Origin: a virus
Lineage: Duplodnaviria; Heunggongvirae; Uroviricota; Caudoviricetes
Direction: 5' to 3' (one strand)
IMG/VR virus record: IMGVR_UViG_2826321507_000003
Length of the DNA stretch: 9,662 nt
This document shows positions 1,649 to 8,292 of the stretch, in pieces. Both the position numbers and the translations under genes were made by a program. Position 1 is the first letter of the stretch, and every line of letters begins with the position of its first letter. The notes beneath the pieces were generated by a model. That model made no database searches, was not told the origin of the DNA, and saw nothing but the letters and a program-made list of their open reading frames with translations.

Positions 1649-3548
1649 TGCAGCCGGTGCGATAGCTACAGGGCTTTTATCTCTCATTATTCCTGTTCCA
1701 CTGACGACAGTTCAGTGGGCCAATAAACATTATTACCTTCCTAAAGAGTCGTCTTATACCCCGGGGCGGTGGGAAACACTGCCGTTTCAGGTTGGCATCA
1801 TGAACTGTATGGGCAACGATCTGATTCGCACGGTTAACCTGATTAAATCTGCCCGTGTTGGTTATACAAAGATGTTGCTGGGAGTGGAGGCTTATTTTAT
1901 TGAGCATAAATCACGCAACAGCCTTCTTTTTCAGCCCACGGACTCAGCTGCTGAAGATTTTATGAAATCTCATGTTGAGCCAACGATAAGGGATGTTCCT
2001 GCATTGCTGGAGCTGGCTCCATGGTTCGGAAGAAAACACCGCGATAATACGCTCACCCTGAAGCGTTTTTCCTCCGGTGTGGGGTTCTGGTGTCTGGGTG
2101 GTGCGGCAGCAAAAAACTACCGTGAAAAATCCGTGGATGTGGTCTGTTATGACGAGCTTTCCTCGTTCGAACCGGATGTTGAAAAAGAGGGTTCGCCAAC
2201 CCTGCTGGGGGATAAACGTATTGAGGGCTCTGTATGGCCAAAATCCATTCGCGGCTCGACGCCTAAAATCAAAGGCTCCTGCCAGATCGAAAAAGCCGCT
2301 AACGAGTCGGCACACTTCATGCGTTTTTATGTGCCCTGTCCGCACTGTGGGGAGGAGCAGTATCTGAAATTTGGCGATGATGCCTCGCCTTTCGGTCTTA
2401 AGTGGGAGAAGAATAAGCCAGAAAGTGTTTTCTACCTTTGTGAGCATCATGGCTGTGTGATCCATCAGTCTGAGCTTGACCAGAGTAACGGGCGGTGGAT
2501 CTGTGAAAACACGGGCATGTGGACCCGTGACGGCCTGATGTTTTTCAGCGCCCGGGGTGATGAAATTCCGCCGCCGCGCTCCATCACTTTCCATATCTGG
2601 ACGGCGTACAGTCCGTTCACCACCTGGGTACAGATTGTCTATGACTGGCTGGATGCACTGAAAGATCCCAACGGCCTGAAAACCTTTGTGAACACCACGC
2701 TGGGCGAGACCTGGGAAGAGGCCGTGGGCGAAAAACTCGATCACCAGGTACTGATGGATAAGGTTGTGCGTTACACGACGGCGGTGCCTGCCCGGGTGGT
2801 TTATCTGACGGCGGGCATTGACTCGCAGCGAAACCGTTTTGAGATGTATGTCTGGGGATGGGCTCCGGGAGAGGAAGCCTTTCTGGTGGATAAAATCATC
2901 ATTATGGGGCGTCCCGATGAGGAAGAGACGCTATTACGTGTGGATGCGGCGATCAACAAAAAATACCGCCATGCAGACGGAACCGAAATGACTATTTCCC
3001 GTGTCTGCTGGGACATCGGGGGGATTGATGGCGAAATCGTTTATCAGAGGTCAAAAAAACACGGTGTTTTCCGGGTGCTGCCGGTAAAAGGCGCATCTGT
3101 CTATGGCAAGCCGGTGATCACCATGCCAAAAACCCGCAATCAGCGGGGCGTGTATCTGTGTGAAGTGGGGACGGACACCGCAAAAGAAATTCTCTATGCC
3201 CGTATGAAAGCCGATCCCACGCCTGTGGATGAAGCCACGTCGTATGCCATCCGTTTTCCTGATGATCCGGAGATTTTTTCGCAGACAGAGGCGCAGCAAC
3301 TGGTGGCGGAAGAGCTTGTGGAGAAGTGGGAAAAAGGAAAGATGCGTCTGCTGTGGGATAACAAAAAGCGGCGTAACGAAGCGCTGGACTGCCTGGTGTA
3401 TGCCTACGCGGCATTACGTGTGTCCGTGCAACGCTGGCAGCTTGATCTGGCTGTACTGGCAAAATCCCGGGAAGAAGAGACGACCCGGCCAACCCTTAAA
3501 GAACTGGCAGCGAAGCTGTCCGGAGGAGTGAATGGTTACAGTCGCTGA
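1620..3548 (+). CDS. A: Terminase large subunit (gpA-like: ATPase/translocase plus nuclease), about 642 aa
   Basis: Collinear with lambda gpA (641 aa) over its full length. Shared motifs include [22 protein letters not shown](T)[48 protein letters not shown] and [11 protein letters not shown] chose the ATG at 1620 over the ORF-track start at 1578 because it gives a lambda-like length and an overlap of about 29 nt with nu1. Confidence 0.93.
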
Positions 3549-3738
3549 ACTGCAGGCGCTGCGTCAGGCGCGCCTTGATTTATTAACCGGTAAACGGGTG
3601 GTGTCTGTCCAGAAAGATGGTCGCAGAATTGAATATACGGCAGCTTCTCTGGATGAGCTTAACCGGGCGATCAATGATGCGGAGTCGGTACTGGGGACAA
3701 CCCGCCGTCGCCGTCGTCCGCTGGGAGTGAGGTTATGA
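3532..3738 (+). CDS. W: Head completion / DNA-stabilisation protein (gpW-like), 68 aa
   Basis: Same 68-aa length as lambda W, with the conserved TGKRVVSVQKDGRRIEYTAAS and RRRR core. GGAGG lies 5 nt upstream of the ATG. The gene overlaps the 3' end of A. Confidence 0.9.
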   Translation: MVTVAELQALRQARLDLLTGKRVVSVQKDGRRIEYTAASLDELNRAINDAESVLGTTRRRRRPLGVRL

Positions 3739-5327
3739 AACGAACGCCTGTCCTGATTGATGTGAACGGCGTTCCGCTTCGGGAGAGCCTCAGCTACACC
3801 GGTGGCGGTGCAGGATTTGGCGGGCAAATGGCAGAGTGGTTGCCACCCTCGCAGAGTGCCGATGCGGCCCTGCTGCCCGCGTTGCGTCTGGGGAATGCCC
3901 GTGCAGATGATCTGGTGCGCAATAACGGAATAGCGGCCAATGCGGTGGCACTGCATAAGGATCACATTGTCGGGCATATGTTTCTGATTAGCTACCGTCC
4001 GAACTGGCGCTGGCTGGGGATGCGGGAGACCGCGGCAAAAAGTTTTGTCGATGAGGTGGAGGCGGCCTGGTCAGAATACGCAGAAGGGATGTTTGGTGAG
4101 ATCGACGTGGAAGGGAAACGCACGTTTACGGAATTTATCCGTGAAGGTGTGGGCGTTCATGCGTTTAACGGCGAAATCTTTGTGCAGCCGGTCTGGGATA
4201 CGGAGAGTACGCAACTGTTTCGTACGCGTTTTAAAGCCGTGAGTCCGAAACGGGTGGACACGCCAGGACACGGTATGGGGAACCGTTTTCTGCGGGCTGG
4301 TGTGGAGGTTGATCGATATGGCCGTGCCGTTGCGTACCATATCTGTGAGGATGATTTTCCTCGCTCCGGGAGTGGACGATGGGAACGGATCCCGCGTGAA
4401 CTACCCACCGGGCGTCCGGCCATGCTGCATATTTTCGAGCCGGTGGAGGACGGGCAGACCCGTGGAGCCAATCAGTTTTACAGCGTTATGGAACGGCTGA
4501 AGATGCTGGATTCCCTGCAGGCAACACAGCTTCAGTCGGCCATAGTGAAGGCGATGTATGCAGCGACGATTGAAAGTGACCTTGATACCGAAAAGGCCTT
4601 TGAATATATCGCCGGTGCGCCGCAGGGGCAGAAGGATAATCCGCTTATTAATATTCTGGATAAGTTCTCCACCTGGTATGACACGAATAGCGTGACGCTG
4701 GGCGGTGTCAAAATTCCGCACCTTTTCCCCGGTGATGATCTGAAACTTCAGACCGCGCAGGATTCAGACAATGGATTTTCGGCGCTTGAACAGGCGCTGC
4801 TGCGGTATATCGCCGCCGGTCTTGGCGTTTCCTACGAACAGTTGTCCCGTGATTACTCGAAGGTCAGTTATTCAAGTGCCCGCGCATCCGCCAATGAGTC
4901 GTGGCGCTATTTTATGGGGCGGCGAAAATTTATTGCGTCCCGGCTGGCCACGCAGATGTTTTCCTGCTGGCTGGAAGAGGCACTTCTTCGGGGGATTATT
5001 CGTCCGCCACGGGCACGTTTTGATTTTTATCAGGCGCGATCAGCCTGGTCACGGGCTGAGTGGATTGGAGCCGGAAGAATGGCCATTGACGGGCTCAAGG
5101 AGGTTCAGGAATCAGTGATGCGCATTGAGGCCGGACTGAGCACGTATGAGAAAGAGCTGGCGCTGATGGGCGAGGATTATCAGGACATTTTCCGCCAGCA
5201 GGTCAGGGAATCTGCAGAGCGGGAAAAAGCCGGACTCTCACGTCCGGTGTGGATAGCGCAGGCGTATCAGCAGCAGATAGCGGAGAGTCGCAGGCCGGAA
5301 GAGGAGACAACACCACGTGAGACGTAA
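3735..5327 (+). CDS. B: Portal protein (gpB-like), 530 aa
   Basis: Collinear with lambda gpB (533 aa). Shared motifs include GNARADDLVRNNG, HAFNGE(I/L)FVQ, FEPVEDGQTRGAN, LQSAIVKAMYAATIES, LLRYIAAGLGVSYEQLSR and GRMAIDGLKEVQE. There is an ATGA start/stop overlap with W. Confidence 0.95.
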   Translation: MKRTPVLIDVNGVPLRESLSYTGGGAGFGGQMAEWLPPSQSADAALLPALRLGNARADDLVRNNGIAANAVALHKDHIVGHMFLISYRPNWRWLGMRETAAKSFVDEVEAAWSEYAEGMFGEIDVEGKRTFTEFIREGVGVHAFNGEIFVQPVWDTESTQLFRTRFKAVSPKRVDTPGHGMGNRFLRAGVEVDRYGRAVAYHICEDDFPRSGSGRWERIPRELPTGRPAMLHIFEPVEDGQTRGANQFYSVMERLKMLDSLQATQLQSAIVKAMYAATIESDLDTEKAFEYIAGAPQGQKDNPLINILDKFSTWYDTNSVTLGGVKIPHLFPGDDLKLQTAQDSDNGFSALEQALLRYIAAGLGVSYEQLSRDYSKVSYSSARASANESWRYFMGRRKFIASRLATQMFSCWLEEALLRGIIRPPRARFDFYQARSAWSRAEWIGAGRMAIDGLKEVQESVMRIEAGLSTYEKELALMGEDYQDIFRQQVRESAEREKAGLSRPVWIAQAYQQQIAESRRPEEETTPRET

Positions 5328-6822
5328 TCTTTCACACATTATTGCCGCAGCATTCAATGAACCGCTGCTTCTGGAGCCCGCCTATGCGCGGGTTTTCTTT
5401 TGCGCGCTCGGGCGCGAGATGGGCGCAGCAAGTCTTTCGGTACCACAACAGCAGGTACAGCTTGATGCTCCCGGAATGCTGGCTGAAACGGACGAGTACA
5501 TGGCCGGAGGTAAACGACCGGCCCGTGTTTACCGGGTGGTGAACGGTATTGCGGTACTGCCGGTGACCGGCACGCTGGTGCACCGGCTGGGGGGGATGCG
5601 GCCATTTTCCGGAATGACTGGCTATGACGGCATTGTCGCCTGTCTTCAGCAGGCAATGGCAGATAGCCAGGTGCGGGGCATACTGCTGGACATTGACAGT
5701 CCGGGTGGGCAGGCCGCCGGCGCGTTTGACTGCGCTGACATGATTTACCGCCTCCGTCAGCAGAAGCCGGTCTGGGCACTGTGCAATGACACGGCCTGTT
5801 CTGCAGCCATGCTGCTGGCGTCGGCCTGCTCCCGACGGCTGGTTACCCAGACATCCCGTATCGGCTCCATTGGCGTGATGATGAGCCATGTCAGCTATGC
5901 CGGTCATCTGGCGCAGGCCGGTGTGGATATCACGCTGATTTATGCCGGGGCGCACAAGGTGGATGGCAATCAGTTTGAAGCGTTGCCGGCAGAGGTTCGC
6001 CAGGATATGCAGCAGCGGATTGATGCGGCGCACCGGATGTTTGCCGAAAAAGTGGCGATGTATACCGGGTTGTCTGTGGATGCGGTCACGGGAACAGAGG
6101 CCGCCGTTTTTGAAGGTCAGTCCGGCATTGAGGCCGGGCTGGCGGATGAATTAATCAATGCGTCGGATGCCATCAGTGTGATGGCCACGGCGCTGAACAG
6201 TAATGTCAGAGGAGGCACTATGCCGCAATTAACTGCAACGGAAGCCGCCGTGCAGGAGAACCAGCGAGTGATGGGGATCCTGACATGCCAGGAAGCGAAA
6301 GGACGTGAACAGCTTGCCACGATGCTGGCAGGGCAACAGGGCATGAGCGTTGAACAGGCCCGGGCGATTCTGGCCGCGGCGGCACCGCAGCAGCCGGTGG
6401 CATCCGCGCAGAGTGAAGCCGATCGCATTATGGCGTGTGAAGAAGCGAACGGTCGTGAACAACTGGCAGCAACGCTGGCGGCGATGCCGGAGATGACGGT
6501 GGAAAAAGCCCGCCCGATCCTGGCTGCTTCACCGCAGGCGAATGCCGGACCATCACTCCGTGATCAGATCATGGCACTGGATGAGGCAAAAGGGGCTGAG
6601 GCGCAGGCTGAACAGCTGGCTGCCTGCCCGGGAATGACCGTGGAGAGCGCCCGGGCTGTGCTGGCTGCGGGATCAGGTAAGGCAGAACCGGTCTCTGCAT
6701 CCACAACCGCCCTGTTTGAACATTTCATGGCGAATCATTCACCGGCAGCGGTGCGGGGTGGCGTGTCACAGACGTCAGCAGACGGTGATGCGGACGTGAA
6801 AATGCTCATGGCCATGCCATGA
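5317..6822 (+). CDS. C: Head maturation protease / scaffold fusion (gpC-like, S49 peptidase family), 501 aa, GTG start
   Basis: The N-terminal two-thirds is collinear with lambda gpC (AFNEPLLLEPAYARVFFCAL, GMTGY, GAFDCAD, KPVWAL, RRLVTQT, GSIGVMM, ITLIYAG, HKVDGN, GLADEL). GTG at 5317 is preceded by GAGGAG. It is longer than lambda C (439 aa) because of an expanded C-terminal repeat region. Confidence 0.9.
   Translation: MRRNLSHIIAAAFNEPLLLEPAYARVFFCALGREMGAASLSVPQQQVQLDAPGMLAETDEYMAGGKRPARVYRVVNGIAVLPVTGTLVHRLGGMRPFSGMTGYDGIVACLQQAMADSQVRGILLDIDSPGGQAAGAFDCADMIYRLRQQKPVWALCNDTACSAAMLLASACSRRLVTQTSRIGSIGVMMSHVSYAGHLAQAGVDITLIYAGAHKVDGNQFEALPAEVRQDMQQRIDAAHRMFAEKVAMYTGLSVDAVTGTEAAVFEGQSGIEAGLADELINASDAISVMATALNSNVRGGTMPQLTATEAAVQENQRVMGILTCQEAKGREQLATMLAGQQGMSVEQARAILAAAAPQQPVASAQSEADRIMACEEANGREQLAATLAAMPEMTVEKARPILAASPQANAGPSLRDQIMALDEAKGAEAQAEQLAACPGMTVESARAVLAAGSGKAEPVSASTTALFEHFMANHSPAAVRGGVSQTSADGDADVKMLMAMP
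6220..6822 (+). CDS. nu3: Nu3-like scaffolding protein from an in-frame internal start within C (nested gene), about 200 aa
   Basis: An internal ATG at 6220 is in the C frame and preceded by GAGGAGG (6209-6215). It lies at the position equivalent to the recalled lambda segment GGRMTKETQ. The downstream sequence carries the Nu3-type motif IMGIL.C.EA.GRE. The start assignment is inferred, not proven. Confidence 0.55.
   Translation: MPQLTATEAAVQENQRVMGILTCQEAKGREQLATMLAGQQGMSVEQARAILAAAAPQQPVASAQSEADRIMACEEANGREQLAATLAAMPEMTVEKARPILAASPQANAGPSLRDQIMALDEAKGAEAQAEQLAACPGMTVESARAVLAAGSGKAEPVSASTTALFEHFMANHSPAAVRGGVSQTSADGDADVKMLMAMP
6262..6678 (+). repeat. Three tandem, diverged copies (each about 40-45 codons) of the scaffold motif within the C/nu3 C-terminus
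   Basis: Unit 1 is about 6262-6390 (QRVMGILTCQEAKGREQLATMLAGQQGMSVEQARAILAAAAPQ). Unit 2 is about 6421-6537 (DRIMACEEANGREQLAATLAAMPEMTVEKARPILAASPQ). Unit 3 is about 6559-6678 (DQIMALDEAKGAEAQAEQLAACPGMTVESARAVLAAGSG). DNA similarity between units is partial (for example ATGAGCGTTGAACAGGCCCGGGCGATTCTGGC versus ATGACGGTGGAAAAAGCCCGCCCGATCCTGGC versus ATGACCGTGGAGAGCGCCCGGGCTGTGCTGGC). Confidence 0.7.
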
Positions 6823-6858
6823 AGTCAGTGCTGAACATCAATACGAGGTTTTAACAAT

Positions 6859-7206
6859 ATGGTGACGAAAACCATCACTGAACAGCGTGCGGAAGTACGT
6901 ATTTTTGCCGGTAATGATCCGGCTCACACCGCCACAGGCAGCAGCGGGATTTCCTCGGCAACACCGGCACTGACACCCCTGATGCTGGATGGGGCCACCG
7001 GGAAACTGGTGGTCTGGGATGGACAGAAAGCCGGTAGTGCGGTTGGCATACTGGTACTGCCGCTTGAAGGCACAGAGGCGGTGCTGACGTATTACAAGTC
7101 GGGGACCTTTGCGACGGAGGCAATCCGCTGGCCTGACAGTGTGGATGAACACAAAAAGGCAAATGCCTTTGCCGGCACCGCCCTGAGTCACGCGGCGCTG
7201 CCGTAA
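6859..7206 (+). CDS. D: Head decoration protein (gpD-like), 115 aa
   Basis: Shared motifs with lambda gpD (110 aa): DPAHTAT, TPLMLD, KLV(A/V)WDG, AVGIL, YKSGTF and AFAGTA. Confidence 0.92.
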   Translation: MVTKTITEQRAEVRIFAGNDPAHTATGSSGISSATPALTPLMLDGATGKLVVWDGQKAGSAVGILVLPLEGTEAVLTYYKSGTFATEAIRWPDSVDEHKKANAFAGTALSHAALP

Positions 7207-7263: not shown

Positions 7264-8292
7264 ATGGGATTGTTTACGACCCGCCAGTTACTCGGTTATA
7301 CCGAACAAAAAGTTAAATTCCGTGCGCTGTTTCTGGAGCTGTTTTTCCGCCGTACGGTGAATTTCCACACCGAAGAGGTGATGCTGGACAAAATTACCGG
7401 AAAAACGCCGGTGGCGGCCTATGTCTCCCCGATCGTTGAAGGAAAAGTGCTTCGCCATCGCGGTGGTGAAACCCGCGTGTTACGTCCGGGCTACGTCAAG
7501 CCCAAACACGAATTTAATTACCAGCAGGCGGTTGAGCGCCTTCCTGGTGAAGATCCGGCTCAGCTGAACGACCCGGCCTACCGTCGTCTGCGTATCATTA
7601 CCGATAACCTCAAACAGGAAGAGCACGCCATTGTCCAGGTGGAAGAAATGCAGGCGGTGAATGCCGTGCTGTATGGCAAATACACCATGGAAGGGGATCA
7701 GTTTGATACTGTCGAGGTGGATTTCGGGCGCTCTGAAGGAAATAACATTGAGCTGGCTGACGGTAAAAAATGGTCTGAGCAGGACCGTGATACGTTTGAT
7801 CCGACGCATGATATTGACCTCTACTGCGATCAGGCCAGCGGCCTTGTGAATATCGCCATTATGGACGGTACGGTCTGGCGTCTGCTGAATGGCTTTAAGC
7901 TGTTCCGCGAAAAACTGGATACCCGTCGCGGCTCAAATTCACAACTCGAAACGGCAGTGAAAGACCTGGGGGCGGTGGTGTCCTTCAAGGGGTATTACGG
8001 CGATCTGGCCATTGTGGTGGCGAAAACGTCTTATGTGGCAGAGGACGGTACCGAAAAACGTTATCTGCCGGAGGGCACACTGGTCCTGGGGAATACGGCA
8101 GCAGAGGGCATTCGTTGCTATGGTGCCATTCAGGATGCGCAGGCGTTGTCCGAAGGTGTGGTGGCCTCTTCCCGTTATCCGAAACACTGGCTGACTGTGG
8201 GCGATCCGGCCCGTGAATTCACCATGACGCAGTCCGCACCGCTGATGGTGCTGCCGGATCCGGATGAGTTTGTGGTGGTACAGGTGAAATAA
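7264..8292 (+). CDS. E: Major capsid protein (gpE-like, HK97-fold), 342 aa
   Basis: Collinear with lambda gpE (341 aa). Shared motifs include YVSPIV.G.V.R.RGG, PGYVKPKHE, DPAYRR.RII, VEEMQAV.AVL.GKYTM, KLDTRRGSNS.LETAVKDLG, VLGNT, RYPK.W and GDPAREFTM.QSAPLM.L.DPDEFV.VQ. AAGGA lies 9 nt upstream of the ATG. Confidence 0.95.
   Translation: MGLFTTRQLLGYTEQKVKFRALFLELFFRRTVNFHTEEVMLDKITGKTPVAAYVSPIVEGKVLRHRGGETRVLRPGYVKPKHEFNYQQAVERLPGEDPAQLNDPAYRRLRIITDNLKQEEHAIVQVEEMQAVNAVLYGKYTMEGDQFDTVEVDFGRSEGNNIELADGKKWSEQDRDTFDPTHDIDLYCDQASGLVNIAIMDGTVWRLLNGFKLFREKLDTRRGSNSQLETAVKDLGAVVSFKGYYGDLAIVVAKTSYVAEDGTEKRYLPEGTLVLGNTAAEGIRCYGAIQDAQALSEGVVASSRYPKHWLTVGDPAREFTMTQSAPLMVLPDPDEFVVVQVK

Follow-up and report, generated by a model that had tools for sequence, protein, structure and literature searches.

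A threefold tandem repeat of a ~40-residue motif was analysed in the viral sequence IMGVR_UViG_2826321507_000003 (9,662 nucleotides; "the window" denotes this whole stretch of DNA), where three diverged copies occupy the C-terminal third of a protein resembling the lambda C head protease (nucleotides 6256-6678). The window is a late-operon segment of a phage-21-type lambdoid prophage and includes the gene 5/gene 6 pair equivalent to lambda C/Nu3. The repeat is identical to the triplicated "Tri box" known from the annotation of phage 21, and is thus a rediscovery and not a new element. The best explanation of this phage 21 Tri-box array is that each unit serves as an interaction module whose multiplication raises the valency of the chain, a reading that we hold with modest confidence to be probable. 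The features needed for the argument are as follows.

5317 to 6822, plus strand: gene for the C-like S49 prohead protease/scaffold fusion protein (equivalent of phage 21 gene 5), 501 residues, GTG start
5752 to 6195, plus strand: S49 peptidase domain (Pfam Peptidase_S49), residues 146-293
6210 to 6215, plus strand: Shine-Dalgarno sequence AGGAGG, 4 nucleotides 5' of an internal in-frame ATG (6220), read from the sequence
6220 to 6822, plus strand: nested scaffold gene (equivalent of phage 21 gene 6 and lambda Nu3), 200 residues
6256 to 6390, plus strand: repeat unit 1, residues 314-358, ENQRVMGILTCQEAKGREQLATMLAGQQGMSVEQARAILAAAAPQ
6415 to 6537, plus strand: repeat unit 2, residues 367-407, EADRIMACEEANGREQLAATLAAMPEMTVEKARPILAASPQ
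6556 to 6678, plus strand: repeat unit 3, residues 414-454, LRDQIMALDEAKGAEAQAEQLAACPGMTVESARAVLAAGSG
6679 to 6819, plus strand: C-terminal tail, residues 455-501, with two short predicted helices (ALFEHFMANH and DVKMLMAM)

Pairwise BLOSUM62 local scores between the units are 101, 82 and 97, compared with a shuffle mean of ~25 (standard deviation ~5). These values correspond to z = 15.2, 11.6 and 15.5, and none of 2000 composition-preserving shuffles scored as high as observed. To avoid circularity, three detectors free of the window's own repeats were run against the C-like protein, and each found exactly three copies: the single lambda motif (independent E-values of 1e-14, 4e-12 and 4e-9), the single motif of Xylella phage Sano (5e-12, 3e-9 and 2e-5) and a hidden Markov model of 103 units taken from homologues with one copy (8e-20, 9e-16 and 5e-13). 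Only at the protein level can the repeat be seen. In nucleotide sequence the unit cores share just 60-68% identity with each other, and where two units have an identical residue the codons differ in more than half of the cases; Tandem Repeats Finder did not detect the array, and DNA repeat seeds combined with Tandem Repeats Finder on positions 6100-6900 returned only short fragments. An assembly artefact, or a similarity that arose by chance in a segment rich in Ala, might also be considered, given that Ala makes up 23% of the region and that Tandem Repeats Finder reports no array. Shuffles that preserve this composition, however, never match the observed scores, external single-copy queries detect all three units, and the array is shared by independently sequenced phages and 1870 Escherichia coli genomes. 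This reading, to which we would give virtually no probability, is already refuted. A previous reading of the window from its letters alone (the sequence-only reading) had placed the motif three times in tandem at 6262-6678 and had taken it for an old, diverged duplication instead of an assembly artefact, and the unit boundaries, self-similarity scores and codon differences given here agree with it on both counts.

The identity of the array follows from comparison with phage 21. The C-like gene is 97.9% identical in nucleotide sequence to positions 4572-6077 of the phage 21 record M81255, ungapped over all 1506 nucleotides, and equally 97.9% identical, ungapped, to the phage 21 complete genome OL657228. 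Phage 21 gp5 carries only point substitutions relative to the window: 11 of 501 residues differ, three of which lie in or beside the array (A364T in a linker, A373V in unit 2 and N409D in a linker). The phage 21 gene 5/gene 6 pair has the same internal ribosome-binding site and ATG for gene 6, with boxes at matching coordinates. Within gene 6, M81255 lists three repeat_region features, a Tri1 box at 5542-5645, a Tri box at 5682-5792 and a Tri3 box at 5823-5936, each with the note "function unknown; putative". At an offset of +745 these map to window positions 6287-6390 (Tri1), 6427-6537 (Tri) and 6568-6681 (Tri3), and each mapped box falls inside units 1 to 3 or at most 3 nucleotides from them. 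The rationale for calling this a rediscovery of a ~30-year-old annotation is the identity of the gene together with the matching Tri-box coordinates, and the novelty that the sequence-only reading had implied is thereby lost. As a discovery the array carries little weight, having been in GenBank M81255 since the early 1990s; a paper by Smith and Feiss (Gene, 1993) is said to be associated with the phage 21 head genes of that record. The two sequences differ in arrangement, the window running in prophage or circular order across cos and phage 21 in virion order.

How widely is the three-unit form distributed? A near-identical (~98%) C gene or Nu3-like segment is present in ev017, PhiR57_1, 4A7, 1W and 3W, and Gifsy-1 of Salmonella also has three units. 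Among 5426 complete Escherichia coli genomes, 1870 have the 603-nucleotide scaffold segment with at least 90% identity, in up to five places per genome, and 1866 of these 1870 have at least 80% of its length. Single units were found in lambda, phi80, N15 and Xylella phage Sano. The sequence-only reading had allowed that the array would be ordinary if lambda and its relatives also carried three copies; this came true for the relatives named above and for prophages, while lambda and most distant homologues have one. The triplication is nonetheless ordinary, as it is present in a classic laboratory phage and in prophages of about a third of complete E. coli genomes. The single copy that the same reading had attributed to lambda is indeed what lambda C contains, and its estimate that the C-like protein is about 60 residues longer than lambda C is close to the actual difference of 62 residues (501 versus 439). 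The two extra units add ~96 residues, a gain that is partly offset because the lambda linker upstream of the motif is longer.

Other copy numbers were also encountered. Two-unit forms are represented by P0022 and P0018, and a four-unit form, P0032 (L008:350-1043), is present in 106 of the 5426 complete E. coli genomes. Units 2-4 of P0032 are almost identical to each other, which suggests that they were amplified recently or evolved in concert. P0018 is missing unit 2 precisely, with the frame kept, and P0009 has a 19-residue in-frame deletion within unit 2. The P0018 cluster holds one sequence and the P0009 cluster four, each recorded on one short contig, so that either may represent a genuine deletion variant or an error of assembly. 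For the survey of architectures, the whole protein was used in a full-library phmmer search and the best 149 representatives at 50% identity were counted. Among these, 101 have one unit, 47 have none detectable (several being truncated) and one has three. The module also occurs in phage records from Vibrio, Xylella, Stenotrophomonas, Xanthomonas, Serratia and Clavibacter, where the protein, if annotated, is mostly called a head maturation or prohead protease or a scaffold. Per-record copy counts from tblastn with one unit are unreliable; homologue searches with the 200-residue scaffold retrieved mostly truncated fragments, and those with the unit profile only 8 short fragments. Major capsid proteins of the phage-21-type head-gene clade are 83-94% identical to that of the window, compared with 62% for lambda E. 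Multi-copy arrays look like a speciality of this clade, which is very abundant within enterobacteria.

Comparison with Gifsy-1 bears on the age of the array. When units at the same position are aligned between the window and Gifsy-1, identities are 34/45 for unit 1, 32/41 for unit 2 and 24/41 for unit 3, whereas cross-comparisons give ~20/41. On these alignments the units of the two phages are positional orthologues, which implies that the triplication is older than the split between phage 21 and Gifsy-1. The lambda copy is closest to unit 1 (28/44). The ratio of nonsynonymous to synonymous divergence (dN/dS) is 0.07-0.30 per unit versus 0.13-0.15 in the S49 domain, values that come from small samples and with dS relative to Gifsy-1 saturated, and that indicate purifying selection on all three units. 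A separate observation concerns L009 (PhiR12_1), whose synonymous divergence from the window is 0.11-0.15 in the S49 domain and units 1 and 2 and rises to 0.86 in unit 3 (6565-6669). This jump suggests a recombination breakpoint within the array, between units 2 and 3.

Structure prediction for a single unit with AlphaFold2 (AF2), based on an alignment of 104 unit sequences, gave a predicted local distance difference test score (pLDDT) of 85.5 and a predicted template modelling score (pTM) of 0.60, with helices at positions 2-9, 18-25 and 32-41. The corresponding model of the 200-residue scaffold, based on a 16-sequence alignment (pLDDT 63, pTM 0.24), contains three modules, each made of three short helices and separated by linkers whose pLDDT is below 50, and then two tail helices. 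Each unit is therefore predicted to fold independently as a small three-helix bundle, and the three bundles are predicted to sit on flexible linkers rich in Pro, Gln and Ala and to behave as beads on a string. The near-invariant unit positions (I8, A14, G16, R17, A21, A25, A35 and L39) comprise hydrophobic or small residues of the core type and a conserved "G-R" loop, and the module is detectable in the 101 of 149 representatives noted above. The unit has no model in Pfam or NCBIfam and no counterpart among solved structures. A PDB sequence search with the unit profile returned only designed repeat proteins and chance matches, and a Foldseek search of the PDB with the whole 200-residue model gave no match at E ≤ 0.001; the latter result is expected because the modules have no fixed relative orientation.

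The tail that follows unit 3 differs from the units in its conservation. Its helices correspond to residues 160-173 and 190-197 of the 200-residue AF2 model and are separated by a disordered stretch rich in Gly and acidic residues. The tails of lambda, Gifsy-1 and Sano share this helix/linker/helix pattern, which across homologues takes the form of an "aLDxxM" element followed by an acidic/Gly linker and, at the end, a hydrophobic helix. Between the window and Gifsy-1, 14 of 50 tail residues are identical, compared with 81 of 111 in the units. In most homologues with a single copy, the unit is followed by the conserved "aLDxxM" helix (TALDRLM in lambda, SALDAAM in Sano), which resembles both the heads of units 2 and 3 (ADRIM and RDQIM) and ALFEHFM in the window (6694-6735, residues 460-473). 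The register of the duplicated segment may thus be shifted, or the tail may begin with the remnant of a partial unit.

A fundamental question is what three copies of this module would do during head assembly. Nu3 is the scaffold of phage lambda. It is reported to have E, C, B and Nu3 itself as interaction partners (PMC3224144). The scaffold of P22 ends in a small helical hook that docks electrostatically on the N-arm of the coat protein, and in the herpesviruses a nested protease/scaffold pair binds the capsid protein by its C-terminus (PMC12005531). The start of gene 6 lies within gene 5 and in the same frame, so that all three bundles are present in scaffold and protease alike. We hypothesize that each bundle is a protein-protein interaction module that would tether the scaffold and the protease inside the assembling procapsid, with the major capsid protein, the portal or other scaffold chains as its candidate partners. 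Three copies would then make a trivalent chain, giving either higher avidity or the ability of one chain to bridge several subunits, and lambda Nu3 might reach a similar valency through self-association instead. The starting points of this proposal, which are the repeat itself, its Tri-box identity, its copy-number distribution and age, the purifying selection and the predicted fold, were obtained directly in the analysis. The binding partner and any valency effect, the latter already suggested in the sequence-only reading, are plausible inferences by analogy with P22 and the herpesviruses. In a more specific form, the Tri-box unit would be a distinct domain by which lambda-type S49 protease/scaffold proteins dock on the capsid or the portal, and the variants with one to four copies would constitute a valency series; this version is possible but doubtful. 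If it were true, the mode of action of lambda Nu3 would become directly testable, and the number of copies would tune how many capsid subunits are held per chain.

The main rival holds that the units are self-association or core-building modules, responsible for scaffold-on-scaffold packing or acting as a length ruler, and that the tail (residues 455-501) is what binds the major capsid protein. Such a division of labour is likened to P22, herpesvirus UL26.5 and the HK97 protease. It agrees with the self-association of lambda Nu3 (PMC3224144), with the recurrence of the tail pattern among homologues and with the C-terminal position of the capsid-binding elements in P22 and the herpesviruses. 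However, conservation between the window and Gifsy-1 is much lower in the tail than in the units, and the 200-residue AF2 model (pTM 0.24) contains no unit-unit packing, although a monomer model cannot reveal intermolecular contacts. We regard this arrangement as rather unlikely. The extra units could also be near-neutral passengers, an in-frame expansion that is tolerated or that merely provides additional protease substrate, with no effect on valency. Working phages do carry anything from one to four copies, and in-frame deletion variants (P0018 and P0009) are found in the databases. What makes this improbable is that the near-invariant residues are kept in all three units, that dN/dS in the units is as low as in the protease domain, that the three-unit state has been kept across E. 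coli and Salmonella lineages despite saturated synonymous divergence, and that nearly all E. coli genomes with the segment retain at least 80% of its length, as counted above.

A final alternative treats the units as DNA-binding modules of the helix-turn-helix (HTH) or helix-hairpin-helix (HHH) type. Unit 3, and no other, gives a weak match to the Pfam HHH family (PF00633; E = 0.095), the segment "LA..GMSVEQAK.IL" is HTH-like, and there is a weak match to designed repeat proteins of the HTH type. The Pfam score of 13.1 bits lies below the gathering threshold of 24, the units are neutral to acidic (isoelectric points (pI) of 6.4, 4.6 and 4.4 and net charges of -0.2, -3.2 and -3.2 for units 1, 2 and 3), as is the scaffold as a whole (pI 4.7), and scaffolds leave before or during DNA entry. 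On the strength of the sub-threshold score and the acidic charge, DNA binding was rejected as highly improbable.

The interaction-module reading can be set beside several known systems. In lambda (gpC/gpNu3), phi80 and N15 (gp5/gp6), a nested S49 protease/scaffold pair lies between the portal and decoration genes as in the window, the N-terminal ~340 residues are ~54% identical, and the motif and tail pattern recur, but there is one unit in place of three. In lambda the homologous internal start would yield a scaffold of 131 residues compared with 200 in the window. Gifsy-1 STM2605, a lambda gpC homologue, matches the window unit by unit; its major capsid protein is 88% identical to that of the window, whereas identity falls to 56.5% in the scaffold part and the tail is strongly diverged. 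The four-unit P0032 (on L008) shares the architecture of the window protein and is accompanied by a major capsid protein of the phage 21 type (83% identical to that of the window), but differs in its number of units. Herpesvirus UL26/UL26.5 shares the nested in-frame layout of protease and scaffold. The similarity to the C-terminal helix-turn-helix hook of P22 is a functional analogy only, in that both would be small helical scaffold modules docking on the inner capsid surface, and no sequence or fold similarity of the unit to residues 238-303 of the P22 scaffolding protein was found. The residual value of the array lies in a conserved three-helix module of ~40 residues that is found in most lambda-type S49 protease/scaffold proteins and has neither a family model nor a structure. 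Moreover, its natural range of one to four copies offers a simple genetic handle on how a lambda-type scaffold engages the shell.

The end of the portal gene and the GTG start of the C-like gene overlap, the C-like protein is matched end to end by PHROG 53 (head maturation protease; E = 4.8e-229), and Pfam Peptidase_S49 (PF01343) matches with E = 1.3e-35 (123 bits compared with a cut-off of 24.9). A PDB sequence search matched SppA (3rst, 4kwb) over residues 77-290. The predicted nucleophile, Ser162 in ACSAA, aligns with Ser166 of lambda gpC in NCSAG, which is reportedly the catalytic residue (Medina and co-workers, 2010). The internal in-frame start with its own ribosome-binding site is predicted to give a scaffold that shares the C-terminus of the C-like protein. 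M81255 has a matching ribosome-binding site annotated at 5464-5468, and both its coding sequence for gp6 (5475-6077) and the coding sequence named scaffolding protein in OL657228 map to 6220-6822. The resulting 200-residue protein is 23% Ala. In the lambda record, nu3 is annotated from 5132 (201 residues), with its start inside the S49 domain, and the start homologous to that of phage 21 and N15 gene 6 is an ATG at 5342 preceded by caggaggg (caggaggg-cga-ATG). Annotations of the Nu3 start in databases are thus inconsistent. None of the three minus-strand open reading frames (ORFs) across the repeat array has a PHROG match, and no promoter-like site was found in window positions 6000-7000. OL657228 annotates two CII binding sites of the form TTGYN6TTGY at window 6225-6238 and 6459-6472 on the minus strand. 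These were rejected as chance-level matches, as the window contains 4 such sites compared with 1.9 expected and 24 of 200 shuffles reach 4.

The remainder of the window presents the head operon in ORF order as Nu1, A, W, portal B, C/Nu3, D, E, FI and FII, with Pfam matches to Phage_Nu1, gpW, HDPD, Phage_cap_E, Packaging_FI, Phage_attach and Minor_tail_Z along its length. The neighbouring features are as follows.

88 to 396: Rz/Rz1
1100 to 1648: Nu1
after Nu1 and before W: terminase A
3532 to 3738: W
3735 to 5327: portal B
6859 to 7206: D/shp
7264 to 8292: E
downstream of E: FI, FII and Z

Between Rz/Rz1 and Nu1, positions 912-923 (context 880-1100) read GGGCGGCGACCT, which we take to be the lambda-type 12-nucleotide cohesive end, and the cosB, IHF and R-box annotations of M81255 map onto 880-1100. 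With the cohesive end at this place, the window spans cos and follows the prophage or circular order, not that of the virion. Between the lysis genes and cos, the minus strand has an ORF of 64 residues (518-712) with a match to Pfam DUF3950 (E = 2e-20), and a run of 15 N at 478-492, between the end of Rz (396) and this ORF, marks a gap or a masked stretch.

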